A DNA stretch of 64,000 bases, from assembly GCF_039654945.1 (NCBI RefSeq), contig NW_027361804.1, forward strand, positions 7,316,001 through 7,380,000, given 5' to 3'. The stretch comes from Dendrobates tinctorius. Lineage: Eukaryota. Below are positions 4,231-64,000 of this stretch, one piece after another; position 1 is the stretch's first letter; each line of letters begins with the position of its first letter. The notes beneath the pieces were generated by a model, which saw nothing but the letters and a program-made list of their open reading frames with translations, did not search any database and was not told the origin of the DNA. Position numbers and translations under genes: made by a program.

Positions 4231-5976
4231 CTAAAACTGTGCTAAGCTAAGAGACCCCCCTTCATACTTTGGCGATTGTGTTCCTCTTCTGCTGCTCCCT
4301 GATATTTCTACAGAACCATCACATACATATAACGCAGCATGTAGAGGCTCGGAGAAGGCGGCAGTGAAGGTGTGTAAGTGTCTGATGGGGTCACACAGCT
4401 CATAAAAGGACAGCTGCCCGGCCTCATAATCCAGACAGATCCTGACCCCATCACTGGAGATCTGGTGAGGTAACGGGATCACTTTACTGTCATGTATCAC
4501 TGAATACTCAGTATTATACCCGAACCCTCTATATAAACACCAGGACTTGTGACTATTTCCAATGTATGACTGGCGCCCCCTCCTGTCTATACTGGGGTAA
4601 CACATCCCCACACTCCACAGTCCTGACCTCCTGCCCTCCACATTCCAGTAATGTCGTCCTGAGGTAAATCTCCTCCCGCTCATCACCTGATAATCCCAGA
4701 ATCTCTCTGCTGTTTCTGGACGATTCTGTGTTATTCTTGTCCAGGTCGCAGTTTTCAGGTCGTCTGATATAAGGAGATTATTAGCAGCCGTGTTTACATC
4801 CAGTAATATGTCTGCAGGATCCTGAACATGGAAGATCACATTTATACCTCTTATCATAGCAGATAATGTGTGTGATATGTGTGAGATCAGCTCCGCACCC
4901 CGATCACCTCCATCATGTCCTCCTGTGGCCTCATCACCTCCATCATGTCCTCCTGTGTCCTCATCACCTCCATCATGTCCTCCTGTGTCCTCATCACCTC
5001 CATCATGTCCTCCTGTGTCCTCATCACCTCCATCATGTCCTCCTGTGTCCTCATCACCTCCCTCTTCCTCAGGATCACACAGGTCACCAATGTCTGGATC
5101 CTGTAGGACAGTCAGTGGATCCGTCATGTTACACAGCTCCTCAATGTGTCTCATCTTCCTGGACAGCTCGTCCTTCTTTATTTCCAGCTTCTGGATCACA
5201 TGTGACAGTGACACCTGCTTTTCCCACCTGGAGATCTCACTCAGGACCTTCTTCTCCAGGTCGTCCACCCGTCTCCTGATGTCTATAAACAGGGCAGTGA
5301 CTCTCTCGGCTTCTCTAGATGCTTGTTGTTGAGCTTTTCTCCTCTGCTCCTTCAGATTCTGTACTATTCTCTCAATTTTCTCTCTGTTTGTGATCAGTTT
5401 CTGCAGAACATCTCTAAATTTCTCCTTTTTCACAAAGGTCTCATCCAGAGACTCCAGTTTATGGCCACTGTGCTCTCCAGTCAGACAGCAGGACGCACAT
5501 ATACAAGCAGCATCCTCAGTGCAGTAATATTCCAGGATCTTCTTATGGACAGAACATTTCCTGGTCTCCAGAGAAGTGCTGGGATCAGTGAGGACGTGTT
5601 CTGCTCCTTTACTGTGAATTCTCAGGTGATTATCACACAGAGAAGCCTCGCAGTGTAGACAGGATCTAACAGCAGGTACAGGAGAGTCCACACAGTAAGT
5701 GCAGCGGATCCCGGTGATCTCCTCCTGAGGTGGATGAGTAGACCGGACATTCTCCACCACATTACACAACGTTATGTTCTTCTTCAGTGTCGGCCGCTCC
5801 TGAAACCCTTCTCTACATTCAGGACAGGAATAAACTCCAGACACATCCTGAGTATTCAGGACCTGATCAATACAGTCCCGGCAGAAGTTGTGTCCACATC
5901 TCAGGGTTACAGGATCTGTATACGGGGTCAGACAGGTGGAACATTCCAGCTCCTTTTCAAGACCTGCAGACGCCAT
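4231..5976 (-). CDS. Intronless TRIM E3 ligase (TRIM25/finTRIM-like: RING, B-box1, B-box2, coiled coil, PRY/SPRY), 581 aa
   Basis: C3HC4 RING CSTC...CGHNFCRDC...CPEC; B-box1 CTYC...CLHCEASLCDNHLRIH; B-box2 CSVH...C...C..C...H..H; PRY LLDVNTAANNLLISDDLK; SPRY SGRHYW, LDYEAGQLSFY. Confidence 0.93.
   Translation of the reverse strand: MASAGLEKELECSTCLTPYTDPVTLRCGHNFCRDCIDQVLNTQDVSGVYSCPECREGFQERPTLKKNITLCNVVENVRSTHPPQEEITGIRCTYCVDSPVPAVRSCLHCEASLCDNHLRIHSKGAEHVLTDPSTSLETRKCSVHKKILEYYCTEDAACICASCCLTGEHSGHKLESLDETFVKKEKFRDVLQKLITNREKIERIVQNLKEQRRKAQQQASREAERVTALFIDIRRRVDDLEKKVLSEISRWEKQVSLSHVIQKLEIKKDELSRKMRHIEELCNMTDPLTVLQDPDIGDLCDPEEEGGDEDTGGHDGGDEDTGGHDGGDEDTGGHDGGDEDTGGHDGGDEATGGHDGGDRGAELISHISHTLSAMIRGINVIFHVQDPADILLDVNTAANNLLISDDLKTATWTRITQNRPETAERFWDYQVMSGRRFTSGRHYWNVEGRRSGLWSVGMCYPSIDRRGRQSYIGNSHKSWCLYRGFGYNTEYSVIHDSKVIPLPHQISSDGVRICLDYEAGQLSFYELCDPIRHLHTFTAAFSEPLHAALYVCDGSVEISGSSRRGTQSPKYEGGSLSLAQF
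4903..5061 (-). repeat. Coding 30-bp minisatellite (GGDEDTGGHD x ~5) in TRIM linker
   Basis: TCCTCCTGTGTCCTCATCACCTCCATCATG tandem units. Confidence 0.9.
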
Positions 5977-6439
5977 CGCTGACAGCAGATGAGGGAACCG
6001 AAAGTAAGAGTTTGTAATTGTCAGAGAACAATGGGTGTGATTTCAGTTTATGACCTAAGAGGAGGTTGAGCTTAAAAGGTGTTTCCTATAAGCCTCCATG
6101 TACAAAACAGACTGATCGTCGTCAGTGACCTGGATCAGATTGTCATCAATGTTTAGTCGGTGTTTGGCATTACCAGCAGCGATTTTCTCATTACATTGTT
6201 TAATAAAAGAAAACATACAGTAGTGTTCAATATTCCATCCGTCCAATATGACGAACCATATTAATCCTGGTTTTTGGTATAAATTAGATCACCACATATC
6301 AAACAATTTACCAGTCGGTGCAGTAGATTGTAAGAAAACCACCAGACTCCGCATTCATGATCTGCAGGTTTCTGAGTCTGTGTTTTAGAATAATTAATTG
6401 TAAGTCGGTGTGCTCAAACTAATAGTAGTGTGGAGATCA

Positions 6440-7197: not shown

Positions 7198-9011
7198 TGT
7201 TACGGCCACTAGATGCGACATAGTTTGTTACATTTTTAGATGGAGATATAAGGGTTAATAATAGAAGGGGTTAGCTGTATAGGAATAGAGGGGGACTTCC
7301 TAGATAGAGTTAGTTAAGGTAGGGGTGTTCGAACCCTGTAGACGGGCTTAATTGCCCGGGGGTGTAAAAACCCTCTTTTTGACTTGACCTTTAGTGTTCA
7401 AGACTTAGGACTCAACACAAACTCCAGCAACGTTAAATCATAGAATCATAGAATCATAGAATCGTAGAGTTGGAAGGGACCTCCTGGGCCATCTGGTCCA
7501 ACCCCCTGCTCAAAGCAGGATTCGCTAAATCATCCCAGTCAGATGTCTGTCCAGCCTCTGTTTGAAGACTTCCATTGAAGGAGAACTCACCACTTCTTGT
7601 GGCAGCCTGTTCCACTCATTGATCACTCTAACTGTCAAAAAGTTTTTTCTAATATCTAATCTGTGTCTCCTCCCATTCAGTTTCATCCCATTGCTTCTAG
7701 TCTTTCCTTGTGCAAATGAGAATAAAGTTGATCCTTCTACAATGTGACAGCCCTTTAGATATTTGTAGACAGCTATTAAGTCTCCTCTCAGTCTTCTCTT
7801 TTGCAAACTAAACATTCCCAAATCCTGCAACCTTTCCTCATAAGACAGGGTTTGCAGACCGGTCACCATTCTGGTCGCTCTTTTCTGAACTTGCTCCAGT
7901 TTGTTGATGTCTTTTTTAAAATGTGGTGCCCAAAACTGGACACAATATTCCAGATGAGGTCTGACCAAAGAGGAGTAGAGGGAAATAATGACTTCACGTG
8001 ATCTAGACTGTATGCTTCTGTTAATACATCCTAGAATTGCATTTGCCTTTTTTGCTGCTGCATCACACTGTTGACTCATATTCAGTCTGTGATCTATTAG
8101 TATACCCAAGTCTTTTTCACATGTGCTGTCACTTAGCCCTATTCCTCCCATTCTATATATGCTTTTTTCATTTTTATTGCCCAGATGTAGTACTTTGCAT
8201 TTCTCCCTGTTAAAAACCATTCTGTTAGTTGCTGCCCACTTCTCCAGTTTATTTAAATCTTTTTGAATCCTCTCTCTCTCTTCTCTAGTATTAGCTATCC
8301 CTCCTAGCTTTGTGTCATCAGCAAATTTAATCAGTTTACCCTCAATTCCTTCATCTAAATCGTTGATAAAGATGTTGAACAATACAGGGCCCAGGACAGA
8401 GCCCTGTGGTACCCCACATGAGACATTCTTCCAATGTTAAGGCATAGTGCCCAGCTATCCAGTCAAGAAGGACAAGTGTAGCAGGAAAGTCAGGGGGGAT
8501 AGAGTTCCCCATTGAAGAATTGAAAGAAGCAAAAGGCAGCCAGACGGGCAAGTGTTCATCATGTGGCGACTTGCAGCCTGGGGGCATTCTCTAGGAGTCG
8601 GGGCGAAACGGCAAAGGGAAGCACCAGTGATAGTGAGTACGGACAGGAGGGATACCGGTAATTCGTACAAGTGGGTACGACCTGACCTCGAGCTGCATAG
8701 GGAGGAGAGTGAAGAAGGGAAGGCTGTTTTGGAATATAGCAAAGATTTTAATGTCCATCACATTTGTAATCTGGATGACCTGCGAAAAGACGCTAGTAAA
8801 GTTCTGCATTGTGAGTTAAACTTGGACTCTGTCTTTATTTGTATGTAAGTGACCGAAGACAGTCCTGGAAAGCAGAGGGAGGACTCTGCCAGTACCGTGA
8901 GTACAAGTCGTGCTATGCGGAAAGTGTTGTATCTTTATCTTGTGAGGGGAGGCCAGGGCACAACAGTACCGGAGTGTTCGGCCATGACTGCGGCCCGGTG
9001 CCTACCTTACA
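7198..9011. mobile_element. Possible solo LTR-like element interrupted by the CR1 insertion
   Basis: TGT...ACA ends with TTAA/CTAA flanks; non-coding; boundaries uncertain. Confidence 0.3.
7437..8435 (-). mobile_element. 5'-truncated CR1 LINE (RT C-terminus, 285-aa open frame, CATAGAAT tail)
   Basis: ORF 7525..8382 has FNIFINDLD, KFADDTKL, RPHLEYCVQFW, LRGDLI. (ATCATAGA)n 3' tail at 7437-7463. GTTAA at 7432-36 and 8436-40 is a possible TSD. Confidence 0.92.
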
Positions 9012-12315: not shown

Positions 12316-14070
12316 TCATAATAATGGTTCCTCGTAAGTTCCATTCCCAAATAACTTAATATAACCTCCCCACATACATAACGCAGCATGTAGGGGCTCG
12401 GAGAAGGCGGCAGTGAAGGTGTGTAAGTGTCTGATGGGGTCACACAGCTCATAGAAGGACAACTGCCCGGCCTCATAATCCAGATAGATCCGGAATCTTT
12501 CATTGGAGATCTGGTGAGGTAATCTGATCTCTTCACTGTTATGTATCACTAAACATCGATTATTATAAACCTGCCCGCCATATAAACCCCAGGACTTATT
12601 ATACCCAATGTATGACTGAGGTCCCCTCCTGTCTATACTGGGGTAACACATCCCCACCCTCCACCTCGGTGATCCACTGATCTCCACATCCCAGTAATGT
12701 CGTCCTGAGGTAAATCTCCTCCTGCTCATCACCTGAGGATGTTCCTGGAATCTCTCTGATATTTCTGGACGATTCTGTGTTATTTCTGTCCAGGTCGCAG
12801 TTTTCAGGTCGTCTGATATAAGGAGATTATTAGCAGCCGTGTTTACGGCCAGTAATATGTCTGCAGGATCCTGAACATAGAAGGTCACATTTATATCTCT
12901 TATCATAGCAGATAATGTGTGCGATAGGTATGAGATTTGCTCCACAATTTTATCATCACCATCTATTGTGTCCTCATCACCTCCATCATGTCCCCATCTG
13001 TCCTCATCACCTCCATCACCCCCATCATGTTCTCCTGTGTTCTCATCACCTCCATCATGTCCTTCTGTGTCCTCATCACCTCCATCATGTCCTCCTGTAT
13101 CCTCATCACCTCCATCATGTCCCCATCTGTTCTCATCACCTCCATCACGTTCTCCTGTGTCCTCATCACCTCCATCTTGTCCCCCTGTGTTCTCATCACC
13201 CCCATCATGTTCTCCTGTGTTCTCATCACCTCCATCATGTCCTCCTGTGTCCTCATCACCTCCATCATGTCCTCCTGTGTCCTCATCACCTCCATCATGT
13301 CCTCCTGTGTCCTCATCACCTCCATCATGTCCTCCTGTGTCCTCATCACCTCCATCATGTCCCCATCTGTCCTCATCCCCTCCATCATGTCCTCCTGTGT
13401 CCTCATCACCTCCCTCCTCCTCCTCAGGATCACACAAGTCACCGGTGTCTGGTTCCTGTAAGACAGTCAGTGGATCTATCACGTTACACAGCTCCTCAAT
13501 GTGCCTCATCTTCCGGCACAACTCGTCCTTCTTTATTTCCAGCTTTTGGATCATATGTGACAATAACACTTCATCTTTCTGCCAGGAAATATCACTCAGG
13601 ATCCTCTTCTCCAGGTTGTCCACCCGTCTCCTGATGTCTGGGAACAGGGCAGTGACTCTCTCAACTTTTCCAGATGCTTTTTCTTGAGCTTTTCTCCTGC
13701 TCTCCTCTAGTCTCCAGACTCTTTCCTCAGTCTCTTCCTTCTTTGTCTTCAACTTCTTGAAAAAATGTCTCAATTTTTCCTTCTTCTTCTTAGAGGACTC
13801 ATCTAGAGACTCCAACTTATGTCCTCGGTGTTTTCCAATCAGATAGCAGGACACACAGATACAAGCAGCGTCCTCAGTGCAGTAATATTCCAGGATCTTC
13901 TTATGGACAGAACATTTCCTGGTCTCCAGAGAAGTGATGGGATCAGTGAGGACGTGTTCTGGTCCTTTGCTGTGAACTCTCAGGTGATTATCACACAGAG
14001 AAGCCTCACACAGGAGACAAGATTTAACGGCAGACACAGGAGCGTGAATACAGTAAGTGCAGCGAATCAT
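12316..14070 (-). CDS. RING-less TRIM25/finTRIM-like paralog (B-box1, B-box2, CC, expanded acidic repeat, PRY/SPRY), 584 aa; functional status uncertain
   Basis: Open frame highly similar to the 4231-5976 gene from B-box1 onward; ATG in AAGATGA context. Confidence 0.7.
   Translation of the reverse strand: MIRCTYCIHAPVSAVKSCLLCEASLCDNHLRVHSKGPEHVLTDPITSLETRKCSVHKKILEYYCTEDAACICVSCYLIGKHRGHKLESLDESSKKKKEKLRHFFKKLKTKKEETEERVWRLEESRRKAQEKASGKVERVTALFPDIRRRVDNLEKRILSDISWQKDEVLLSHMIQKLEIKKDELCRKMRHIEELCNVIDPLTVLQEPDTGDLCDPEEEEGGDEDTGGHDGGDEDRWGHDGGDEDTGGHDGGDEDTGGHDGGDEDTGGHDGGDEDTGGHDGGDENTGEHDGGDENTGGQDGGDEDTGERDGGDENRWGHDGGDEDTGGHDGGDEDTEGHDGGDENTGEHDGGDGGDEDRWGHDGGDEDTIDGDDKIVEQISYLSHTLSAMIRDINVTFYVQDPADILLAVNTAANNLLISDDLKTATWTEITQNRPEISERFQEHPQVMSRRRFTSGRHYWDVEISGSPRWRVGMCYPSIDRRGPQSYIGYNKSWGLYGGQVYNNRCLVIHNSEEIRLPHQISNERFRIYLDYEAGQLSFYELCDPIRHLHTFTAAFSEPLHAALCMWGGYIKLFGNGTYEEPLL
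12953..13413 (-). repeat. Coding 30-bp minisatellite (GGDEDTGGHD-type x ~14-15)
   Basis: Same unit as in the first TRIM, with variants. Confidence 0.9.
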
Positions 14071-14316
14071 CTTGACCTCCTCGTGATGTAGTGGAGGATT
14101 TCCTGTCTACTCAACAACGTTAGTCCATGCAGGTTGTTCCAGAAACTTTGCTCAACATTTAGAACAGGAAGAAACTACAGAATAATCCTGCGTATTCAGG
14201 ACCTGATCAATACAGACCCGTCAGAAGTTGTGTCCACCTCTCAGGGTTACAGGATCTGTATCTGGGGTCAGACAGATAGAACATTTGAGCTCCTCTCCTG
14301 GACCAGCAGACGCCTT
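14071..14316 (-). pseudogene. Dead RING-domain remnant of the second TRIM
   Basis: In frame reads KASAGPGEELKCSICLTPDTDPVTLRGGHNF*RVC...CSKC*...VE*: ATG>AAG, Cys>Gly and three stops. Confidence 0.85.
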
Positions 14317-23200: not shown

Positions 23201-26200
23201 ATATGTTGAATCAGAAGTGTCTGATAGAGGCTATTAAAAGATATGTGCACGCTCAGCTCAGTCGAGCATGCCTATAAGATTGTGGTCTGAAGTTTGGACT
23301 CAATTCCCAACAACCCATCTTTGCTGCCGCAAACTGACAAGACCACCAGCTAATATGAACAGCTCTCAGTGTTATCACATGGTAAGACACAAGCCTTGCT
23401 AGGTGATAAACAATATAATCAATATACAATATGTTATATTACTTATCTGCCCGCATTCTCCACCACTTGTGGAATATCCAGCAAAGATTCAGTCTTTACA
23501 TGTGATTTGAATTTAAAAATTTACTTAAAAAATAAATTTATTTGAATTTTGTTACATTAAATTCACCTGTGAAGACCGGATTTTTGCTGGATTTTCCATA
23601 TCATAGGTCAACTTGTGAGGTAGGCCTCTTAACTCTGGGCCTCCAAAAGTAACGTGGACATCAAGCACTGCAGCTTATATGCAGACTTGGCATTTCTCAC
23701 TACCATCATGCCAGCAGGCTTTTTCCCACAAATACTGACAAGTTGAAGCTTACACTACAACAGGAACCACATGCGGGGTAAACTATGTATACTCAATCTC
23801 ACCAAGAACACAACCTCATATCCACTTCCCAAATCTTCCTCTTGTTGGTATGAAGGGGAGTACCAGCATCACAAAAAGTGCATATCTATTGGCAATCCCA
23901 CGCGTTTTGGGACTTCATGTCCACAACAGTCTCATCCAACTAAGTGACGAACACCCCTCTTTTCCAGTAAATGTAATGAAGTATGGAGGTGGAATGCAGG
24001 ATTGAACTACAACATAATGTAGGGCCACTACTTTATGTATGGCTCGGCACTGGGGAAACAATAAAGGGGACACAGCTCGCACTGTACTGTTGGAGTCTCT
24101 GAATTCAGCTGATCGGTATCAAGCCGGAGTCAGAACTTTCATTGCTTCTCGAATAAAAGTGTCACAAAGTGACTTGTCCTGTGTGACGCGACCCGCAGGA
24201 CGGTGCTAAAACGACAGGACAAACAAGGGGAACACCGGGGAAACTGTTACACGGTGGGCCCTGCAATAGGGAACGGGGACGTGGAGACCTCCTGCACTCC
24301 CCTGAGGCAGTGTCCCTAAACACTCCTAACGTTCCCTATACAGGCTCTTCACCTGTCGCCGAGCAGGATACCTCCAATCCCTAGCTCGCCCTGCACCTAT
24401 CCCTTTCTAGGGAGCTGGTAGGTGCAGACACTAGTCCCACCGCTGTACTAATACACACAAGGGAAATACTACAAAACAGGGAAAACACACAACTTAGCTT
24501 TGCTCTGCTGCAATTGCTCCAAGCAACAGAGTACGGCACCCGGATATAGTTTCCACCTGAATAGCTGCTAATCCAAAGCTCTGGCTGAGCTGCAAGGCAC
24601 TGCTCTCAATAGCTTCTCTCTCCACCAAGGTTGGTTGGGGAATGAACAATATCACCAACAGTGATTCAGAACACCTAACACACCTTTATAGGTAGGAGCC
24701 AGAGTAATCACACCTGCTGGGTAATTTACGTGTAATAACCCCAGCAGCCACCGGGGGGGGGGCAAAACCAGCACTATAGCCACTACAGTTGTAGTAACCC
24801 CAGCGGCCACCGGGGGCAAAACCCACACTAAAGCGACTACAGTGTAGTAACCCCAGCGGCCACCGGGGGCAAAACTAACCTTAAGCCAAAGGCTTGAAGG
24901 AAAAAAAAAAAAAAGGTTATATGTGCTAGATGTGCCACAATCCAACATGGATTGTGACTGATAGGAACTGAAGGAGTTAAATTGAGTTCTGTCTATGTTG
25001 CATTCTCTTGTTTAAAACCTTATCTGTTCTTCGAGGAGATGTCTCAGACATCTCCCTTGTGAACCAAGGTCAAATACCTCTGCTTTTTCGCCTAAATGAC
25101 TTTCTTTGTCGAAAACAAGTTGTAAAATCATTTGTACTGCGCATGTCTGTAAAATGTTTACATTCTTTACTATAAAAGACGGAAGCCTAACTGATAAGCC
25201 AGAGGCGTCTTGGAGGCATCCTGAGTTGTACCATACAGCTGGTGTCTGTGTAGTTCTTCTCCACGGAGCTGATTTAATTAGAGACATATGATGCTTCACA
25301 CCCAAGAACATCGGTCCTTCAGATGAAAGAGTAATCTGAGGGATCCCGACAGTTTCCTGGCGCCCGAAACAGGGACCTGATATAGGCACCTCTCCAAGAC
25401 TACCCGATCTACAGACCACTCCAGTTACTGATGAAATTGTGAACAGCAGACCTAAACACCTGGCCAGGTAAGAGATCAATTTTTCTCTTCTCTGCTCTTC
25501 ATAATCTATCATTATAACTAAGGTCCGTATAAAGGGGAATCTAGTAGAGGAGGGGGCCGTAAAATCAGGTCCATATAAGAACTCTGAGGAAATCGGGTGT
25601 GACACGCATATGTAATTTCTGCTCGAATGAGAGGTTACTGTAGGTTCTGTGTGTGCACAGCTATTTTTAGAAAAAGAGCTGATGCAAATCAAAATGGGAG
25701 AGGTCTGACATTATGGAATATAAGGCTGGGTGAACAGTTCATACTGCGCAGCCCGGACGGACAAGTTTTTCACAATAGACGGTTCCGCACTAGGAATAGA
25801 GGAGGTTGTTGAATGGCTACTTTGATTTGAAGGACTGTGAAAAGTAGACAAATAAGCTGCACAGTAGGTATTCGTTCAAAGAGTGGTGATATTGCCTAAC
25901 TGGGTCATGTGACAGCGTCCTTTCGGGGAGGTCACCGCCTAAGCTTAAATCAACACCCTTTACGAATAAACCTTGTGACAGATAAGAGTGTGACCGAATG
26001 AGCACAGGACCGTGAAATGAGCCTGTGACAGGATATGACTGAAGAACCCCGACAGATGGACACTTTATTTACAATCCTGTGTGTTGTGGGAGTATTTCTG
26101 TTCGGATGCTACATAGCATATAAGTACACGAAACACGTAGTACACCGAGGAACAGACACTCCATTTAGCCTGTTAGCACCTTAGGAAGAAGGTAACGAGG

Positions 26201-29200
26201 TATAGTAGAGCCTAGTCTTGAGCTTACCCAATACACCACCTAAGGCAGGGGACTAACAGGAAGACAACAAGAGAGACAGGATAAGAATAAAAGATAAGAT
26301 GGGGAACAGTCAGGGAAAGATACCTGAAGAAGGAAATCGGTTATGTGATATAATTGAGGATAGATATGGAAGTAGTGCAGCAAAGAACCTGGAAAAAGTA
26401 TTAATCAAATCCAAAGTGCAAGATAGGCAGGCTGTGTGAATCCTTGTATATATGTCTATGAGAACCTCTGAATAAGATGAAAGATGAGTAATTGAGTAAA
26501 AAAAAAAAAATCAGTGAATGAGCACGTATGAATGAATCATCACACATCATTTTTGTGTCAAGAGATTTGTGACCTTTCTAGTTGTGGTGGAATCCCGGAC
26601 AGATGCGTTATAGATATTTCAAATCTACATCTGAGACTGAATGAATTGAGTAATGATATAGTTCGTGTTATATGTGGCATTACATTGTAAAGTTTCCTGA
26701 ATGCATGTGGCCAGAAAAAGGGCAAGGCATGGTTAATCTCATTATACAGTTATCTGCCCTTACAGTGAAATCCCGTGATTTTGAGTTTCTTTGTAGAAAT
26801 TGATTTTGATAAGTCTAAAGAACTACAGAATTCTGTGAAGGACGACGCTGCATTCTGATGGGAGGGGGGAATGATACCGCTGCGTAGTTTTTCTTCTCCC
26901 TTCGCTCTTATCTCTGCTGAGTGTGAGCTGTGCTCAAAATTCTCTGTAATTCTATCCGTAAGGAACGCGCTGAAAGATTTGTGCATTTTAAAGCAACAGT
27001 ACTTAATTGAAGATTGGAAGTTAAAAGTAAGATATGGTGCCTAATTTAGAAGGGAATTGTAAGTGATTGTTTGGTCATTGTAAGTGATTGCTTGGTCATT
27101 AATGTGTTTGAACCTGCTTCTAGTTGTGTGATTGATTTGTATAGCAAATTGTGTCAAATTACAAGAGACAGAGAAGGAAGGAAGCAGTAAAACAAGTGGG
27201 ACAAATATTGAAAAAGGCAAAAATACCAGAGTGTGAAAGTTTGGATGTACAAAAAGGCACAGACAAGGGAAGAAAATAGCAAGTGAATAAATGATGCTTG
27301 AGAATGTGCAGCAGTGTGGAAGGTGTATTATGAATGTTTGATTGACAAAGTGTAACCAGAGACCCAGACAAAACAGATGGACTTGTAAACACTGTGGTCA
27401 GACTCAGACAAACCCAGACTGAATAGCTACTTGTGTGACCTGTGCTACTGACCTAAGAGAATTGCACTAAATCCTATCCAGACAAGATCATAAGAAGCTG
27501 ACATAATAGTGTGGATAGTGGGTAGTGGGACATTGGCCCTTGAGGAGTAAGCTGACAGTAGACATCAGACGGCCAACCCCATCAGGACCTAGAAGTGTGA
27601 CTAGAATAAGAAAGATACAGGTGTATTATCCCTGGAGCCCCTCTGACCAGCTAGCTTTGCTGAAGCAGCTGCCTGCCCCTGAAGACCAACCATTCCCGTT
27701 TTACAGACACATAAAGGAAGTACAGCAGACATATAAGTGTACCTGGGCAGACCTAGAGAGGTTGATGAGTTTAAAGGCAGGTGACGCACTAGATCATATA
27801 ATTAAGACACACAGATGTGACAAAGAATCAGGCTTGGGGCATGGATGATAAATCTGCACGATCTGGGGAGACGTACTGTGAGTCACTAAGACAATGGGCT
27901 GCAGTGGAACAATCAGAGCAGTCTGTACTCCTGACTAATGTGACACAGCAAAGAGGAGAGAGAGTAGAGATATACCTTGGACGGTTACAGCTGAAATGGG
28001 CAGACATGGGGTACATTTGCATAAACCCACTTGATGTTAGAATACTGGTGGATGCATTCATTGACGGTATGAACAAAGACTTACGAGACGCAGTACAGAC
28101 AGCCAGACCTGAATGGAGACATGTAGATCCGAAAGACCTCCTTAAGGTAGCTAAAGAAATTGAGCAAACAAGGACAATAAAACGACCTGTCATGTATGCT
28201 GGAGCACAAGGAAAAAAGTGGAGACGTAATAGGGAAGGCATGTGAGATGACACTGACGTTTCTTTTGACAATCTATTCCCCACATGACATCCATGCCATA
28301 CTCCTACAAGTTCAACCAAAACATCTGTCTATGGCCAGACAGCTCAGACTTGAGTGTGCTCGACTAATTCCTGAGTATGTCACTCCTCAAAAGATGTAAC
28401 GTTCTGAATCCAGCCACCCTCCTGCCTGTGGATTCAGAAAAGGGGGAATTGGTGACCGTATTGGCAAGTGAGGAAGGATACTTTGACATGACGCATGAAC
28501 ATGTCTGCATAGAACTGATGAGTCAGGAGACAGTTGGGTTTGCACACATTCATGAAAAACCTGTTCCTAATGCAGACTTTGAGTTTCTTTTTTGTAGATG
28601 GCCCCAGATACCACCAGGATGGACGATTCTACACTGGATATGCAGTAGTATCCTCACATGAGGTAATCCGAGCGGAACCACTCTCTCCTCACATGTCGGC
28701 GCAGGAGGCAGAGTTGAAGGCACTCACTGAGGCGTGTAGAGCCGCTGCAGGTAAAGTCGCTAATATTTTCACAGATTCGAAGCCCATTAAAAATGCAGAG
28801 CTGTTGAAACAATTGATGGAGGCATTGATGTTACCAGTCCAGGTTGGCATTGTCAAGGTAAAAGCACACACAAAGGTGACTCCGTGGAGGTAGAGGGCAA
28901 TAGAAGGGCGAACGAGGCTGCTAAAATAGCACAAGGCGGCCTAGAGAGAGCAGTGGACGGTGGCGGGGAGTCAGCGTATTCCAGCCACATTGGGTCTAGA
29001 TGTCCTGAAATCCCTCCAGCAAAAGGCTGCCCAAACAGAGAAGGTACACCGAGGGAGACTGGGAGCTGAGCTGAACTCAAATGGAGTATGGGAGAATAAG
29101 GATAAAATGTGCCCACCAAAGTCCCTGTTCCCAATCATGGCGCAAGCAGCACATGGCCCCAATCACACCTCAAAAAGTCACATGTGTGCCATGGTAGATG

Positions 29201-32200
29201 CCTTCTGGATCGCTCCTGGCTTCAGTTGCGCAGCCGCGAAACTTGTACAATCATGCCTCATCTGTGCACAGCACAACCCAGGTAAAACAGTAAAAGTCCC
29301 TAAGAAAGCGACACCTAGGCCTCTCTACCCGTTTCAGAGACGGCAGATTGACGACATACAGCTACCAAGGTAGGAGTGTATGCAAATATCCTAGTATGTG
29401 TAGATCTCTTCTCTGGATGGCCAGAGGCCTACCCGGTGAAAACGGCTACAGCTCGAGCCACTGCAAAGAAACTGGTGATGGAACTAATACCACGATTCGG
29501 TGTCCCTGAAACAATTGAATCAGACAGAGGTACACACTTTACTGCTGAGGTAATGCAAAATGTAATGCAAATGATAGGTGTAGAACAAGCATTTCATACA
29601 CCCTACCACCCACAGAGTTCAGGGAAGGTAGAAAGAATGAACGGGACACTGAAATTGAAAATACAGAAAACCATGGAGCAGACCCATAGACCATGGCCAG
29701 AGTGTCTCCCATTAGCATTATTCTCAGTAAGGTACACACCCACGGGGAAAACTAAACTGTCACCCTTCGAGATACTGTTTGGAAGACCACCGAACACAGG
29801 GTTGTACTACCCACAGGTCTTAACACTCAATGTGGATAATTTGACAAGTTATGTAATCCAGTTGCAAAAGCATTTAACTCAAATGCATTCTCTAGTTTTC
29901 TCTTCCATTCCAGATCCAGATAGTGTGGAAGGAACTCACTGTCTACAACCTGGTGATTACGTATATGTCAAGAAACACTCCAGAAAGACCCTTGAACCCC
30001 GATATCAAGGACCTTACCAAGTACTCCTAACAACGCCTACTTCTGTTAAGTTGGAAGGACGACCAACCTGGATCCACGCATCGCATTGCAAACTAGCCAC
30101 AGGAGTTAACAAAGCATAAGAGTGCATAATGTTTTGGTTTGGTTTTGTTGCATTATCTGTAATAATGGTAGCTGCGTGGGACAATCTAAATTCTCCAATG
30201 TCCTTGAATAATAAGTTTATACAACATCATGAAAAATTACTGAATGATTGGTCAAATCATTTGCTGGATCTGCACACATTCAGCAGTATCAGCCACTAGT
30301 ATTCCGTTCCTTGTTATTCCTATGCCACCCGAGGAATTATTTGCCTGGACCAGTTGTTCTGATACACTTGCTAATAATGCCACAAATAATGTGAAGTTAT
30401 GGAACACAACTGTTGGTATACCTATTGTGGGATGGGTAGGATACCCTTGGTGGCAGGGTAATCTTTCAGGAAGTAATACATACCTTCAATATCTGGCATA
30501 TAAAGGGGGGGCTTGGGTACCCAGGAATAGAACTCGATTAACCTACCTGGGGCAAATTCCAATGTATGGCCTACAAGTTAGTTTTAATGTAACTTCCCAC
30601 TCTACTGATGCCTTCAAACCAATACTGCTAGAAAGAAGGTTGCATAACACGTCCTGGGAGTATTCCAATTTATTTCCCCAGGGCAATAATGAAACTTGTT
30701 TTAATATTTCAGGTAATATACCTTGCAACGAGTCATCTGGATATGAGAAAGGAACTCCCACCTGTGGAAATCCCGATGTAGGGTATTGTAGCCCTTTAGG
30801 ACAACTTCCAAATTGGTGTATGCTTCAGAATGTATCTGCGTTCATAGATTTAGTTCATAGACTGGTATTACAACATTCAGCCCTATGGGACCTACCTAGT
30901 GACATGTTCTGGGTATGTGGAGACAATGCATATAAATGGTTGCCAGTAGGGGTAAAAGGTGCTTGTACTCTGGGTCGTTTGACTCCAGCTACCTTTGTTA
31001 TTCCGAATGACCAGTTGAATACTCAGAGCATACCTAAACACACGTTGTACAAAAGAGCTGCTGACAATACACCTCGCCTCTCTGGGAGACCACATATAGT
31101 GCAGATGAGTGTGGCCAATAAAATTGTCAGCTCTATTTTTATTTATCCTATGATTACTCAAATGTGGGATAAATTAGTCAGGGCTACAGATTACTTAGAT
31201 GACCAAATATGGGATATATTGGATATATTGAACACCACCGTTGCTGTCCAAAATCAGCTCATCATAGCCACTAATCAGCATACCATAGTATTAGATTATT
31301 TAACTGCAGCGCAAGGAGGTATGTGTCAGGTCATCGGACCAGCTTGCTGTCATTATATAGATCCCAACAGCATTATAAAGTTAAAATTAAAAATAGAGGA
31401 TGTTCAAAAACTTAGAGATCAGTACGATAAAGACAATGATCGTACTAAGGATAGTTGGTGGTCAGATACATTCTCCTTTCTTAATCCAGCTAATTGGTTT
31501 AAGGGTATTGGAGGCTGGATAGCTGGGATTATACTAAGTCTATTACGTATTGTTGTTTGTATCTTCGTAATATATGTGCTATTGAAACTTGTTTTTTGGT
31601 GTATCTCTGTATGCAAGAAAAGATGTAGAAATAGATAAGGAAGTTTGACTGTAAACAACAAGAATTTAACTATTATTCCTTTGAGTCCTAGATTGACATC
31701 TCATTTCTGGCATGAAGGAGCGTACTCTTGCAATGATGGACGTGGCTTCAGTATCTGGGGGATGGAGAAGGTAGAAGACCTGTCTCCCTTGGGCAACCCG
31801 TCGGCCTGGGATAGTACCTGGTGAACGAGCCACTATCCGCTGTTGTTGCAGGATCCAGTGTTCCAGATTGTGGAAAATGAAGATGTCAAAGGGGGGAATG
31901 ATAGGAACTGAAGGAGTTAAATTGAGTTCTGTCTATGTTGCATTCTCTTGTTTAAAACCTTATCTGTTCTTCGAGGAGATGTCTCAGACATCTCCCTTGT
32001 GAACCAAGGTCAAATACCTCTGCTTTTTCGCCTAAATGACTTTCTTTGTCGAAAACAAGTTGTAAAATCATTTGTACTGCGCATGTCTGTAAAATGTTTA
32101 CATTCTTTACTATAAAAGACGGAAGCCTAACTGATAAGCCAGAGGCGTCTTGGAGGCATCCTGAGTTGTACCATACAGCTGGTGTCTGTGTAGTTCTTCT

Positions 32201-35200
32201 CCACGGAGCTGATTTAATTAGAGACATATGATGCTTCACACCCAAGAACATCGGTCCTTCAGATGAAAGAGTAATCTGAGGGATCCCGACATGACAAAAA
32301 GCAGTTATGTTACAGTTGGGTTTACTTTCGCTGGCATTGTTAGACATCTTACTTCTTCCTTTGGTAGCCCCCCATCCTGCAGTCAGACAGCTGTCAGGTC
32401 CAAACTTTTCAGCTTCTTGCGGCAAACATATTACAGTCACGGAATCACCTTAAATAAGGGAGAGAGAAGTCTACAGAATGTCAAGCCTCATATAGGCAAT
32501 GTAATAAAACGTTGTCTGCAGTTATATGGATAATGTTCCCCCAGCTTGAATGGTGAAACGGCTTACTAATGCACCGACGCATTTCAAGCTCCCTGTGAAG
32601 GATGTGAGACAACTCTACTGAATTTATGATGGTAGCCATATTGGTTGTCAGTATAAAGCTATCCATTAAGGGTTTAGTGTATGAGGCAGACTCCCGACAT
32701 CCCTACCATTCAGGTACTTGGTAACTGTCCCGATTTAGCCCATAAAAATGTACCAAATTTGGCATTTAAAGTAATGGAACCAATATGTCTCAGTTCCATT
32801 TACTTGAATTGGACTAAACTGCTGTAAGATGCAGTACCAGGCAAAGCCACAATTCGACATGTCACTGTACCTGGGTGTAGGGAATGTGGTGCCAACTTAC
32901 ACCGTGGACCATTTATTCAGTTAATTTAGGGAGAGTGATTGGAGTCTAACCAACTCCGTTCAGGTATTGCTGGTCTACCATAAGGATAAGCCATCGATAT
33001 GATCGTCCTAGAAAAATCGCTTCTTACCCAAGAGAAGAGGAAACTCAAGCTCTAGTAGGCAGAGGTCGTAATCTGGAGGAACCAGGTCATTGTCGTACAG
33101 TTCGTGAATGTAGGATTTTCTTACTACGGCTTCTGTCCTGTTAGCAGAAGACCGGTCTACGTGTCCTAGGATCACTCTGTCTGACCCAACACTGCGAAAA
33201 GGAGGACAGCATTCATCATAACATGTATAGGACTTCACATGGACCCTTCAAAATGTACTGTTTAGTCAAATTTGCCCCAAAAACAACATAGAGGCAGTTT
33301 CCTTGCACAAGTGGCCATGGTTTTGGGTGGTCTTGAGAGTACCCATCACCCATGGTCGTTCCACTAAGATTGGGTCACCCCCACCCAGTTTCTCCTCCCT
33401 CACAAAACTTTTCAATCAGAACCATTTTTCTATTGAATGATGTAGAGAGAGGGGGGCTTCATAGATAATTTCCCCCCAAAAATTCCACTTTTGGGAAAGT
33501 TATTGACCCTATGGCACAGTCATAGGATATTTTTAATTCCTTTTAAAATTATCTTTACGTTGAGTTATAACGAGAACATTTACACAAAGTTGCAGTGCGC
33601 CGCAGTCAGCAACCATTTCTCATGGATGATTGTCGCCCCACAGAAAGAATCTCCCCATTGGTCCTCAAGGTTGGCAATCCAAGGCCAGGACCTGGGCAGA
33701 GCGTTCTGACCTCCCACAACTCGAGGAGTCCCTTTTTCATCTGTAACAACTTCAGTCATTGAAGCAGACTTGGTTTTTGGCATGGGATCTACAGAAGAGA
33801 CCCCACAGAGGTCTACAAAAAGAAATCAAAAACACGGTTGTTTTAAGGTCATGACTCACTGACTTTGGTGCCAAGCACTCATTAATATATTTGTGAAATA
33901 TAGGACATTATATGGTAGACTGAATTACCATAATCAACCGCAACCTCCACAGATCTCCATGTCTCCATGACGGAAGACCTATTTCTCTCACCGTAACGAA
34001 TATGGAAACCGCGACTACTCACAGAGTTGTCGGTGTGGAAGTGAAGAATTAGGAAGCCGCTTCTGGAGATGAAGACACGATTGGACTTATTTCCGCAAAG
34101 TGATACTAGGAGAAGAAAAGTAAACTAGATGGCATCCCCACAAGAGACAATGATATATTCGTTATCATTTACCAAAATATTTTATTTTTATATTAAGTAG
34201 ATTCAAAATTGCTCCCAGGATTATTTCCTAGAATAAAGATATAGACAAAATTACTCCATTTTTCTGACACCACGTACAAATTCCTTATAGAATTCTGTCT
34301 ACCTGCAGCCTCCACTAGGGGGAGCTAAATGCATACTGATAATCAATAGAACTCAATAGTAACCCAGTATGCAGTAAGCTCTTGAGCTCGCCTAGTGGTA
34401 GAACTTTATAATTTAGCAGAAGATTTGAAGCTTCATATCATGAGAAAGGAAAAATAATCTCTTCCCCTCTCACAACACTTTCAAAAACAATAAAGCTTAC
34501 CCAACAAGGTGGTATCATTACCGTCTCCATCATAAATACTTAAAAAATCCCATGTGCAGTTTGGAGAGTCCTCCAGTCCTAGGTCTACAATGTATAACGC
34601 AAGCTCATGCCCAGATTCAGAAGAAATGATCCAACGACAATCAAGTCCACTAAGGTAAGTCACCGGATACCCGGGTGATTTTAACTTGGATGTTCCAGCT
34701 CTTAAAACTTTCAGAACGGGGCAACCTGAAAAGGTAAAAATGATCAAAGAAGAAGAAAATATTTTAAAAAAAATCATATCGAAACACATGACAAGTAGTC
34801 AATATCTAAAATGCCTGACCAAGGTACTCAGATCTTGGAGAGGAGTGCACCAAAAATTGTGAAGTGGTATATTAAGACACCTAGCATGAAGGATTGAGTG
34901 AACTCTGAAATTCGAAAATTTAAATTTTTTCATTGAGAAAATTACTTACTGAGATTAGACAAATCCTCGCTGTGATTTATAGAATCTAAAAAAAGCAAAA
35001 ACATTATATATATTACTGGTTAACAAAGTTCCATCTCTGTTGACCTTCTACCCTCTTTGGGGGTCTTCTTTATAGATCTGTTAACTTTTTTTATATTGTG
35101 TAGGGTACGGCCACACGGTAACGGCTTTATATTGTGTAGCGTACGGCCACACGGTAACGGCTTTATATTGTGTAGCGTACGGCCACACGGTAACGGCTTT

Positions 35201-52549: not shown

Positions 52550-53770
52550 CACTCACTGGCCACTTTATTAGGTACACCTGTCCAACTGTGTGTTAAGACT
52601 TAATTTCTAATCAGCCAATCACATGGCGGCAACTCAGTGCATTTAGGCATGTAGACATGGTCAAGACAATCTCCTGCAGTTCAAACCGAGCATCAGTATG
52701 GGGAAGAAAGGTGATTTGAGTGCCTTTGAACGTGGCATGATTGTTGGTGCCAGAAGGGCTGGTCTGAGAATTTCAGAAACTGCTGATCTACTGGGATTTT
52801 CACGCACAACCATCTCTAGGGTTTACAGAGAATGGTCCGAAAAAGAAAAAAAATCCAGTGAGCGGCAGTTCTGTGGCCGGAAATGCCATGTTGATGCCAG
52901 AGGTCAGAGGAGAATGGGCAGACTGGTTCGAGCTGATAGAAAGGCAACAGTGACTCAAATTGCCACCCGTTACAACCAAGGTAGGCAGAAGAGCATCTCT
53001 GAACGCACAGTGCGTCGAACTTTGAGGCAGATGGGCTACAGCAGCAGAAGACCACACTGGGTACCACTCCTCTCAGCTAAGAACAGGAAACTGAGGCTAC
53101 AATTTGCACAAGCTCATCGAAATTGGACAGTAGAAGATTGGAAAAACGTTGCCTGGTCTGATGAGTCTCGATTTCTGCTGCGACATTCGGATGGTAGGGT
53201 CAGAATTTGGCGTAAACAACATGAAAGCATGGATCCATCCTGCCTTGTATCAACGGTTCAGGCTGGTGGTGGTGGTGTCATGGTGTGGGGAATTTTTTCT
53301 GGGCACTCTTTCGGCCCCTTGGTACCAATTGAGCATCGTTGCAACGCCACAGCCTACCTGAGTATTGTTGCTGACCATGTCCATCCCTTTATGACCACAA
53401 TGTACCCAACATCTGATGGCTACTTTCAGCAGGATAATGCGCCATGTCATAAAGCTCGAATCATCTCAGATTGGTTTCTTGAACATGACAATGAGTTTAC
53501 TGTACTCAAATGGCCTCCTCAGTCACCAGATCTCAATCCAATAGAGCATCTTTGGGATGTGGTGGAACGGGAGATTCGCATCAGGGATGTGCAGCCAACA
53601 AATCTGCGCCAACTGTGTGATGCCATCATGTCAATATGGTCCAAAATCTCTGAGGAATGCTTCCAGCACCTTGTTGAATCTCTGCCACGAAGAATTGAGG
53701 CAGTTCTGAAGGCAAAAGGGGGTCCAACCCCTTACTAGCATGGTGTACCTAATAAAGTGGCCAGTGAGTG
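52550..53770 (+). mobile_element. Full-length Tc1/mariner DD36E (Incomer-type) transposon, 1221 bp
   Basis: Perfect 29-bp TIRs CACTCACTGGCCACTTTATTAGGTACACC; TA TSD at 52548-49 and 53771-72. Confidence 0.95.
52698..53738 (+). CDS. Intact DD36E transposase, 346 aa
   Basis: HTH N-terminus; [19 protein letters not shown]; 36 residues between the second D and E. Confidence 0.93.
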
Positions 53771-59649: not shown

Positions 59650-62600
59650 AGGGGGCAGTATTATAGTAGTTATATTCTTGTACATAGGGGCAGTATTATA
59701 GTAGCTATATTCTTGTACAAAAGGAGCAGCATTATAGTAGTTATATTCTTGCACATAGGGGCAGTATTATAGTAGTTATATTCCTGTACATAGGGGCAGT
59801 ATTATAGTAGTTATATTCTTGTACATAGGGGACAGTATTATAGTAGTTATATTCTTGCACATAGGGGCAGTATTATAGTAGTTATATTCTTGTACATAGG
59901 AGCAGTATTATAGTAGTTATATTCTTGCACATAGGAGCAGTATAGTAGTTATATTCTTGTACATAGGGGGCAGTATTATAGTAGTTATATACTTGCACAT
60001 AGGGGCAGTATTATAGTAGTTATATTCCTGTACATAAGGGCAGTTTTATAGTAGTTATATTCTTGTACATAGGAGCAGTATTATAGTAGCTATATTCTTG
60101 TACATAGGAGCAGTATTATAGTAGCTATATTCTTGTACAAAAGAAGCAGTATTATAGTAGTTATATTCTTGCACATAGGGGCAGTATTATAGTAGTTATA
60201 TTCTTGTACATAGGAGCAGTATTATAGTAGTTATATTCCTGTACATAAGGGCAGTTTTATAGTAGTTATATTCTTGTACATAGAGGCAGAATTATAGTAG
60301 TTATATTCTTGTACAAAGGGAGCAGTATTATAGTAGTTATATTCCTGTACATAAGGGCAGTTTTATAGTAGTTATATTCTTGTACATAGGAGCAGTATTA
60401 TAGTAGTTATATTCTTGTACATAGGGGGCAGTATTATAGTAGTTATATTCTTGTACATGGGGGCAGTATTATAGTAGTTATATTCTTGTACATAGGGGCC
60501 GTATTATAGTAGTTATATTCTTGTACATAGGGGCAGTATTATAGTAGTTATATTCTTGTACATAGGGGCAGTATTATAGTAGTTATATTCTTGTACATAG
60601 GGGCAGTATTATAGTAGTTATATTCTTGTGCATAGGGGCAGTATTATAGTAGTTATATTCTTGCGCATAGGGGCAGTATTATAGTAGTTATATTCTTGTA
60701 CAGAGGAGGCAGTATTATAGTAGCTATATTCTTGTACATAGGAGCAGTAATATAGTAGTTATATTCTTGTACATAGGGGCAGTATTATAGTAGTTATATT
60801 CTTGTATATAGGAGCAGTATTATAGTAGTTATATTCTTGCACATAGGAGCAGTATTATAGTAGTTATATTCTTGTACATAGAGGCAGTACTATAGTAGTT
60901 ATATTCTTGTACATAGAGGCAGTATTATAGTAGTTATATTCTTGTACATAGGGGCAGTATTATAGTAGTTATATTCTTGTACAAAGGGAGCAGTATTATA
61001 GTAGTTATATTCTTGTACATAGGGGCAGTATTATAGTAGCTATATTCTTGTATATAGGGGCAGTATTATAGTAGTTATATTCTTGTACAGAGGAGCAGTA
61101 TTATTGTAGTTATATTCTTGTACATAAGGACAGTATTATAGTAGTTATATTCTTGTACAGAGGAGCAGTATTATAGTAGTTATATTCTTGCACATAGGAG
61201 CAGTATTATAGTAGTTATATTCTTGTACATAGGGGCAGTATTATAGTAGTTATATTCTTGTACATAGGGAGCCGTATTATAGTAGTTATATTCTTGTACA
61301 TAGCAGCAGTATTATAGTATATATTCTTGTACATAGGAGCAGTATTATAATAGTTATATTCTTGTATATAGGGGCAGTTTTATAGTAGTTATATTCTTGT
61401 ACATAGGGGGCAGTATTATAGTAGTTATATTCTTGTACATAGGGACAGTATTATAGTAGTTATATTCTTGTACATAGGAACAGTATTATAGTAGTTATAT
61501 TCCTGTACATAGGGAGCAGTATTATAGTAGTTATATTCTTGTACATAGGAGCAGTATTATAGTAGTTATATTGTTGTACATAGGAGTAGTTATATTCTTG
61601 TACATAGGGGGCAGTATTATAGTAGTTATATTCTTGTACATAGGGGGCAGTATTATAGTAGTTATATTCCTGTACATAGGGAGCAGTATTATAGTAGTTA
61701 TATTCTTGTACATAGGGAACAGTATTATAGTAGTTATTGTTGTACATAGGAGTAGTTATATTCTTGTACATAGGGAGCAGTATTATAGTAGTTATATTCT
61801 TGTATATAGCGGCAGTATTATAGTAGCTATATTTTTGCACATAGGAGCAGTATTATAGTAGTTATATTCTTGTACATAGGGGGCAGTATTATAGTAGTTT
61901 AATACTGCTCCCTATGTACAAGAATTGAACTACTATAATACTGCTCCCTATGTACAAGAATATAACTACTATAATTCTGCCCCCTCTGTACAAGAATATA
62001 ACTACTATAATTCTGCCCCCTATGTACAAGAATATAACTACTACAGTCATATGTTAAAGTTTGGGCACCCCTATTAATGTTAACCTTTTTTCTTTATAAC
62101 AATTTTGGTTTTTGTAACAGCTATTTCAGTTTCATATATCTAATAACTGATGGACTCAGTTATATTTCTGGATTCAAATGAGGTTTATTGTACTAACAGA
62201 AAATGTGCAATCTGCATTTAAACAAAATTTGACCGGTGCAAAAGTATGGGCACCCTTATCATTTTCTTGATTTGAACACTCCTAACTACTTTTTACTGAC
62301 TTCCTGAAGCACTAAATTGGTTTTGTAACCTCATTGAGCTTTGAACTTCATAGCCAGGTGTATCAAATCATGAGAAAAGGAATTTAAGGTGGCCACTTGC
62401 AAGTAGTTCTCCTATTTGATTCTCCTATGAAGAGTGGCATCATGGGCTCCTCAAAACAACTCTCAAATGATCTGAAAACAAAGATTATTCAACATAGCTT
62501 TTCAGGGGAAGGATACAAAAAGTTGTCTCAGAGATTTAACCTGTCAGTTTCCACTGTGGGGAACATAGTAAGGAAATGGAAGAACACAGGTACAGTTCTT

Positions 62601-64000
62601 GTTAAGCCCAGAAGTGGCAGGCCAAGAAAAATATCAGAAAGGCAGAGAAGAAGAATGGTGAGAACAGTCAAGGACAATCCACAGACCACCTCCAAAGACC
62701 TGCAGCATCATCTTGCTGCAGATGGTGTCACTGTGCATCGGTCAACAATACAGCGCACTTTGCACAAGGAGCAGCTGTATGGGAGAGTGATGCGAAAGAA
62801 GCCGTTTCTGCAAGCACGCCACAAACAGAGTCGCCTGAGGTATGCAAAAGCACATTTGGACAAGCCAGTTACATTTTGGAAGAAGGTCCTGTGGACTGAT
62901 GAAACAAAGATTGAGTTGTTTGGTCATACAAAAAGGCGTTATGCATGGAGGCTAAAAAACACAGCATTCCAAGAAAAACACTTGCTACCCACAGTAAAAT
63001 TTGGTGGAGGTTCCATCATGCTTTGGGGCTGTGTGGCCAATGCCGACACCAGGAATCTTGTTAAAGTTGAGGGTCGCATGGATTCAACTCAGTATCAGCA
63101 GATTCTTGACAATAATGTGCAAGAATCAGTGACGAAGTTGAAGTTACGCAGGGATGGATATTTCAGCAAGACAGTGATCCTAAACACCGCTCCAAATCTA
63201 TTCAGGCATTCATGCAGAGGAACAATTACAATGTTCTGGAATGGCCATCCCAGTCCCCAGACCTGAATATCATTGAACATCTGTGGGATGATTTGAAGCG
63301 GGCTGTCCATGCTCGGCGACCATCAAACTTAACTGAACTGGAATTGTTTTGTAAACAGGAATGGTCACAAATACCTTCATCCAGGATCCAGGAACTCATT
63401 AATAGCTACAGGAAGCGACTAGAGGCTGTTATTTTTGCAAAAGGAGGATCTACGAAATATTAATGTCACTTTTATGTTGAGGTGCCCATACTTTTGCACC
63501 GGTCAAATTTTGTTAAAATGCAGATTGCACATTTTCTGTTAGTACAATAAACCTCATTTGAATCCAGAAATATAACTGAGTCCATCAGTTAGTAGATATA
63601 TGAAACTGAAATAGCTGTTGCAAAAAACAAAATTGTTATAAAGAAAAAAGGTTAATATTAATAGGGGTGCCCAAACTTTAACATATGACTGTATAATACT
63701 GCCCCTATGTACAAGAATATAACTACTATAATACTGCTCCTATGTGCAAAAATATAACTACTATAATACTGCTCCCTCTGTACAAGAATTGTAGTAGTTA
63801 TATTCTTGTACATAGGAGACAGTATTATAGTAGTTATATTCTTGTACATAGGGGCAGTATTATAGTAGTTATATTCTTGTACATAGGAGCAGTATTATAG
63901 TAGTTATATTCTTGTACATAGGGGCAGTATTATAGTAGTTATATTCTTGTACATAGTGGGCAGTATTATAGTAGTTATATTCTTGTACATAGGGGGCAGT
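59650..64000. repeat. 35/36-bp satellite GGGGCAGTATTATAGTAGTTATATTCTTGTACATA with internal inversion and Tc1 insertion
   Basis: Forward 59650-61899, inverted 61900-63790, forward again to the window end. Confidence 0.96.
62044..63691 (+). mobile_element. Full-length Tc1 DD34E transposon with long (~210 bp) IR/DR TIRs; transposase has one frameshift
   Basis: CAGTCATATGTTAAAGTTTGGGCACCCC ends; TA TSD; ORFs 62397..63266 and 63212..63463; frameshift near 63150 (CGCAGGGATGG); WTDET, QQD, SPDLNIIE with 34 spacing. Confidence 0.95.

Follow-up and report, generated by a model that had tools for sequence, protein, structure and literature searches.

The closest known system to the element described here is recKoRV of the koala, a set of KoRV x PhER recombinants. 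In the accessible part of that account, the ends of a young, intact retrovirus surround an older, defective endogenous middle, with target-site duplications and short shared sequences at the breakpoints, and co-packaging has been proposed; recKoRV1 was inferred to have arisen repeatedly, in one step (PMC6112702). In the mouse, according to the available text, the non-coding ETn elements are mobilised by the coding MusD family, the helper from which they derive; trans-mobilisation has been demonstrated, and ~240 ETn stand against ~100 MusD, about 2:1 (PMC6466679). The non-autonomous beta and epsilon groups of wheat RLC_Angela, as far as the excerpt describes them, changed helper, with discordance between LTR and internal trees, all within a single family of plant copia retrotransposons (PMC9744471). 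ERV-Epsilon-Dti, which carries a 495-bp LTR and intact genes in the portion of its description at hand, comes from what is likely the host species studied here (PMC12690878).

The element in our window (the whole stretch analysed, 64,000 nucleotides) is one copy of a large chimeric endogenous retrovirus (ERV) family in which neither gag nor pol works. By sequence comparison, this family is a chimera and not a deleted helper, with a middle (~26395-29403) from a defective branch, D', of an older family D, and ends from another family, C. Unlike the recKoRV elements, it shows a single origin for its first switch, hundreds of descendants and a later, further switch to family B, and its 3' arm retains the integrase (IN) core and the whole of env. 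The numbers of this parasite and of family C (404 versus 192 exact matches) resemble the ETn/MusD ratio; unlike ETn, the parasite takes its middle from another family and is known from its sequence alone. Unlike RLC_Angela, the frog case involves three vertebrate ERV families, all with env, whose Pol proteins are 43-53% identical. The window element, with 393-bp C-type LTRs and broken genes, also has neither the LTR length nor the intact genes of ERV-Epsilon-Dti; the LTR length of family B (495 bp) is a lead towards equating that family with it. A literature search that took in few subscription journals turned up no account of this family or of a vertebrate ERV chain through three families, and the accessible part of the host genome paper mentions ERV once and non-autonomous elements not at all.

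The ERV lies antisense between exons for the third protease domain of a multi-domain serine protease, a gene on the minus strand recognised by motif scan; the sequence flanking the ERV on its 3' side has a single match in the assembly. Exons with three trypsin-like domains and CUB-like motifs span ~17241-48460 on the minus strand, and we take this gene to be ovochymase-like. The two LTRs, when aligned, differ at 0 of 393 bases and TGAC flanks both sides, as an earlier note on this DNA had described. Among 11 frames scanned with Pfam, RNase_H, rve, MLVIN_C and TLV_coat were matched and neither RT nor protease was; the MLV-type integrase C-terminus (MLVIN_C) and gamma-type envelope (TLV_coat) are class I (gamma/epsilon-like) features. 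The layout is given in Table 1. The primer is presumably Lys3-like or at least of Lys type, and the GTTTCC spacer with the start of the primer-binding site recurs in 3/4 family-C copies checked. In both the parasite and C, six bases (25352-25357 in the window) separate the terminal CA of the LTR from the primer site; gammaretroviruses usually have two. The family-C leader likely holds the packaging signal. A 21-bp tandem duplication at 27056-27100 is absent from all 13 nearest siblings and is therefore confined to this copy or its immediate parent. Elsewhere in the window, two long single frames on the minus strand (4231-6042 and 12316-14106) belong to TRIM-type genes, with RING in the first, B-box and PRY-SPRY; their coding sequence includes an acidic tandem repeat of 30 bp. 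Two Tc1-type transposase-like frames and one CR1-like RT fragment were recognised by eye from translations (52647-53738, 62388-63266 and 7525-8436).

Table 1. Parts of the window ERV, and sibling copies with imperfect target duplications
Feature	Position or copies	Strand	Basis
Target-site duplication TGAC, left copy	24955..24958	.	Sequence
5' LTR, family-C type	24959..25351	+	Equals 3' LTR
Spacer GTTTCC (6 bases) and primer-binding site, presumably tRNA-Lys3-like	25352..25376	+	
Leader and first gag codons (ATG 26299), family-C derived	25377..26372	+	
5' switch zone, C to D'	26373..26404	+	Fine map; spanned in 38/40 sampled copies
Degenerate gag from defective D' branch	26395..28228	+	Identity to D'
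Capsid remnant within D'-derived gag	27802-28228	+	
NC-PR-RT deletion junction, 1,793 bases	28226..28228	+	Comparison with L102; junction 28-mer
RT tether, RNase H, N-terminal integrase; D-derived, frameshifted	28229..29403	+	Pfam, D comparison
3' switch, D' to C, in short stretch common to both parents	29404..29415	+	40/40 sampled copies
Integrase core and C-terminus, family-C derived, severed from own N-terminus	29416..30119	+	rve, MLVIN_C
env, family-C derived, broken at 30256-30259	30129..31638	+	TLV_coat; family-C comparison
Polypurine tract	31888..31898	+	Sequence
3' LTR	31899..32291	+	Equals 5' LTR
Target-site duplication TGAC, right copy	32292..32295	.	Sequence
Imperfect duplications ending AA (other loci)	Parasite L001, L002, L005, L008, L145, L148, L153; family C L166, L167, L171		

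Measured against an undeleted relative (L102), the window ERV has lost the NC-PR-RT segment and, at 28779, 72 bases of RNase H; its frames for the tether, RNase H and IN are also broken by indels (28383, 28583, 28871-28947 and 29366). Its gag is ~558 bases short at 27154 relative to D', and env is broken relative to one family-C copy. The earlier note was thus right about the broken gag, the RNase H deletion and the frameshifts in IN and env, and its NC-PR-RT deletion, placed there at ~28245, is confirmed slightly upstream.

These lesions belong to a family. An exact 28-mer spanning the capsid/tether join has 404 matches genome-wide (0 for the reversed control), exact counts being floors as regards sequence variation, yet open to inflation by duplicated haplotypes. 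Searches with the LTR, the junction and the integrase each gave 40/40 scored matches at ≥99%, among the matches listed. A sample of 40 copies was taken in list order from 100 listed junction places, skipping those already sampled or clustered; all 40 span both deletions (gag and RNase H) as well as the 3' switch, and 38 span the 5' switch. Each pol lesion is common to 52-58 of 58 siblings, and among 59 parasite copies a full frame is found in none for gag, none for pol and two for env. Because hundreds of copies bear the same lesions, the damage is older than the window insertion, as had been argued from the identical LTRs, and amplification came after it. One sub-lineage of 5.4-5.8 kb (L123, L138, L139, L140, L142, L146, L149, L150 and L153) lacks about 29687-31409, the ends of this deletion being approximate, and has a shorter LTR type common to some C copies.

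Long open pol frames occur in three families found with an RT query and a related protein: A (1224 aa), B (1278 aa) and C (1192 aa). Family C matches the window at the LTR, leader and gag start, then from mid-integrase to the 3' end, and not between. A fourth, more decayed family, D, traced via a Ranitomeya protein, matches the middle. In 150-base bins, identity to the nearest C copy is 92-100% through 24959-26308 and 95-99% through 29459-30958; between these C-like stretches, identity to D' copies is 84-98%. One C copy is 96.9% identical over 24959-26372, where D copies give no match, and the integrase core and C-terminus agree with complete C copies at 95-97% of amino acids. The gag at 26395..28228, in turn, is 91-95% identical to D' copies and, along most of its length, 76-87% identical to the majority of full D copies; the middle shows only 23-66% protein identity to C. 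A pattern search for an undeleted RNase H adjoining the window's own bases found none. In the four D' loci examined, gag is already remodelled, pol is partly lost and the LTRs are D-type. For the tether and RNase H region, a tree with the window copy and every second sibling places 30/30 parasite rows in one clade (100/99), sister to D' (95/93) and inside D; since D and D' bear their own LTRs, the direction of the switch is indicated.

With one pair of C breakpoints and one middle clade, the family does not show repeated independent origins of one recombinant, several 5' breakpoints being seen only in the B branch. The 5' switch zone has, at 26373-26394, no clean match to either sampled parent; C and D are ~68% alike near the 3' switch, and short shared sequence lies at this switch and at two of the B junctions examined. 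Pol identity is 53% between C and D, and 43-47% between B and either of these. In a tree that holds automatically named proteins only, the Pol of families A-D groups with frog sequences (100/100). The host is most likely the poison frog Dendrobates tinctorius: the closest public protein with an almost identical integrase core is filed under that species and agrees with this genome at 100%. Gag and pol share one frame with a single stop between, TGA in C and TAG in D, which is also a class I feature. Families A and B, which have no LTR or leader in common with the window ERV, were considered as sources of its ends or middle and rejected.

Family C qualifies as a coding partner: its LTR and primer site are those of the parasite, and the two were active over the same period. 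A C-specific RT 28-mer has 192 exact genome matches. Among 30 C loci, gag is full in 24, pol in 24, env in 13 and all three in 10, a proportion that overstates intactness, since copies were chosen for open frames or for likeness to the closest copy. The genome-wide comparison that the earlier note proposed has found both siblings with the same lesions and an intact family. In the nearest C subtype, most copies differ from the window LTR at 3-6 bases, and 15 C LTR pairs hold 6 mismatches in total. When 57 parasite LTRs and 30 from C are placed on one tree, the two interleave with 7 label changes, the pattern expected from repeated recombination between co-packaged RNAs; at least 4 changes are forced by strong branches, and a single change is allowed in 0/200 bootstrap trees. 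Shared C-only variants give dN/dS of 0.13 in RT, 0.07 in IN and 0.26 in env, and family C is thus under purifying selection. Parasite-only shared IN variants give 1.46 (3 synonymous, 11 not), with no purifying signal. Parasite-only shared env variants look purified (0.32), which counts against the reading preferred here and is not fully explained; they fit only if they entered from unsampled C alleles. Since at least three ERV families (A, B and C) comprise many near-identical copies whose pol frames are long and open, this genome seems to have had several recently active retroviral lineages.

Some copies have exchanged their ends again. Family-B ends were first found in 2/40 sampled copies, and the 3' C/B junction has 85 exact matches genome-wide, a count that overlaps the 404 capsid/tether matches; by these matches, at least 85 copies carry such ends. 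With 20 further copies taken across the 85-match list, 22 were examined, and all 22 have B ends at 94-100%, the D-derived middle and the integrase and env part from C. Their 3' breakpoint is single (31041) and their main 5' breakpoints are three (26298, 26592 and 26671). Among 18 callable LTR pairs there are 11 base differences.

Several observations point to passage through RNA. All 13 nearest siblings have identical LTR pairs, each variant being present in both LTRs, though choosing these siblings by LTR likeness biases towards identical pairs; their insides differ from the window ERV by 0.6-1.5%. Exact GT..AG segments are missing, 29530-29913 in four copies and 30122-30712 in two. The latter loss takes away the env start, and the same join occurs at high depth in contigs of run X3; the kind of run being uncertain, and none being on record as RNA, this is no proof of expression. 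Two env deletions occur singly, jointly or not at all among parasite copies, which fits recombination among siblings. Contigs from two runs of a second organism, which can show presence and not absence, contain close matches to the D-derived middle that end near the 3' switch; env matches there are diverged.

Target sites carry a further pattern. Imperfect duplications whose left copy ends in AA occur at 7/48 parasite and 3/15 C copies (Table 1) and at 0/18 B-ended copies; AA are the two bases that precede the LTR in viral DNA. At three more copies the right flank begins with GTTT, like the spacer after the LTR. In sequence these flanks look like unremoved viral overhangs, a pattern for which the literature search found nothing.

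Ages were estimated with a rate of 1.03e-9 per site per year, taken from the available text of a frog study (PMC12690878). Mean LTR-pair ages are ~1.9 My for 35 junction-picked loci (those callable among 45), ~0.5 My for 15 C copies and ~0.6 My for 18 B-ended copies; the 13 nearest siblings, pooled, give under ~0.3 My, with a selection bias toward youth. The window ERV was previously called very young, which should be moderated: its 0/393 LTR differences bound the age only below ~3.7 My (95%).

We infer mobilisation in trans: the C-D-C family was likely packaged, reverse-transcribed and integrated by the proteins of intact family-C proviruses. The satellite lineage with a helper that had been suggested for this locus is supported in part, by the hundreds of copies and by a co-active, intact family with near-identical LTRs; the broken gag-pol, however, did not prove to be the helper's own. 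A simple internal deletion derivative of the helper would account for the LTR, leader, IN core and env, which are 96-97% identical to a C copy, but scarcely for a middle so distant from C in protein and nested in family D; none of the loci compared (30 of C, 15 of D or D') is an intact C-D-C mosaic, and this origin has next to no probability. Gene conversion or ectopic recombination between proviruses, in place of template switching, would have had ample opportunity among hundreds of homologous copies, and meiotic recombination is named as a possible recKoRV route in the accessible text (PMC6112702). Such DNA-level exchange is nonetheless quite improbable as the source of the chimeras and shared LTRs, given 4-bp duplications at 36/48 C-ended and 16/18 B-ended copies, the low likeness of C and D near the 3' switch, and B junctions that sit on microhomologies of 5-9 bases.

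Whether C is the exclusive helper is a separate matter. Intact A or B proviruses might also cross-package RNA whose ends came from C: the B-ended branch requires at least one encounter of parasite RNA with B RNA, and both families retain long open pol frames together with LTR pairs that are almost identical. This is unlikely, though less so than the other alternatives, as neither family has its LTR or leader in common with the window ERV, integrases and primers are specific to particular ends, and the parasite has the odd target-site pattern of C. As for the window ERV itself, its single LTR pair would be compatible with an old locus made to look young by gene conversion or an assembly artefact. 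That is very improbable: a variant at LTR position 203 stands in both window LTRs and in 0/13 siblings, the window LTR is among the youngest C and parasite LTRs on the tree, and the flank is unique.

Under mobilisation by family C, an already defective D' would once have gained the LTRs, primer site, leader and 3' half of C, probably by template switching between co-packaged RNAs. The chimera would then have spread, roughly over the last 2 My, with continued LTR exchange with C, and a later branch would have acquired family-B ends in the same way and spread anew. The ends would carry the cis signals that decide the helper used, and the middle would be the cargo. More tentatively, a non-coding lineage may outlive its helpers by serial capture of the ends of active ERVs (D, then C, then B) and still be spreading under two of them; its middle would then be a cis element kept by selection because it helps with export, packaging or evasion of silencing. 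We regard this extension as possible and somewhat doubtful.

One genome, with parents and intermediates still present, would thus record cross-packaging and recombination between families that are about half identical in Pol. To the one-step picture drawn from recKoRV it would add a succession of helper switches by a parasite more numerous than its helper. Classification or dating of such elements by the LTR alone conflicts with that by pol alone. The family bears on what sets helper specificity, and on whether such parasites may dampen active ERVs.
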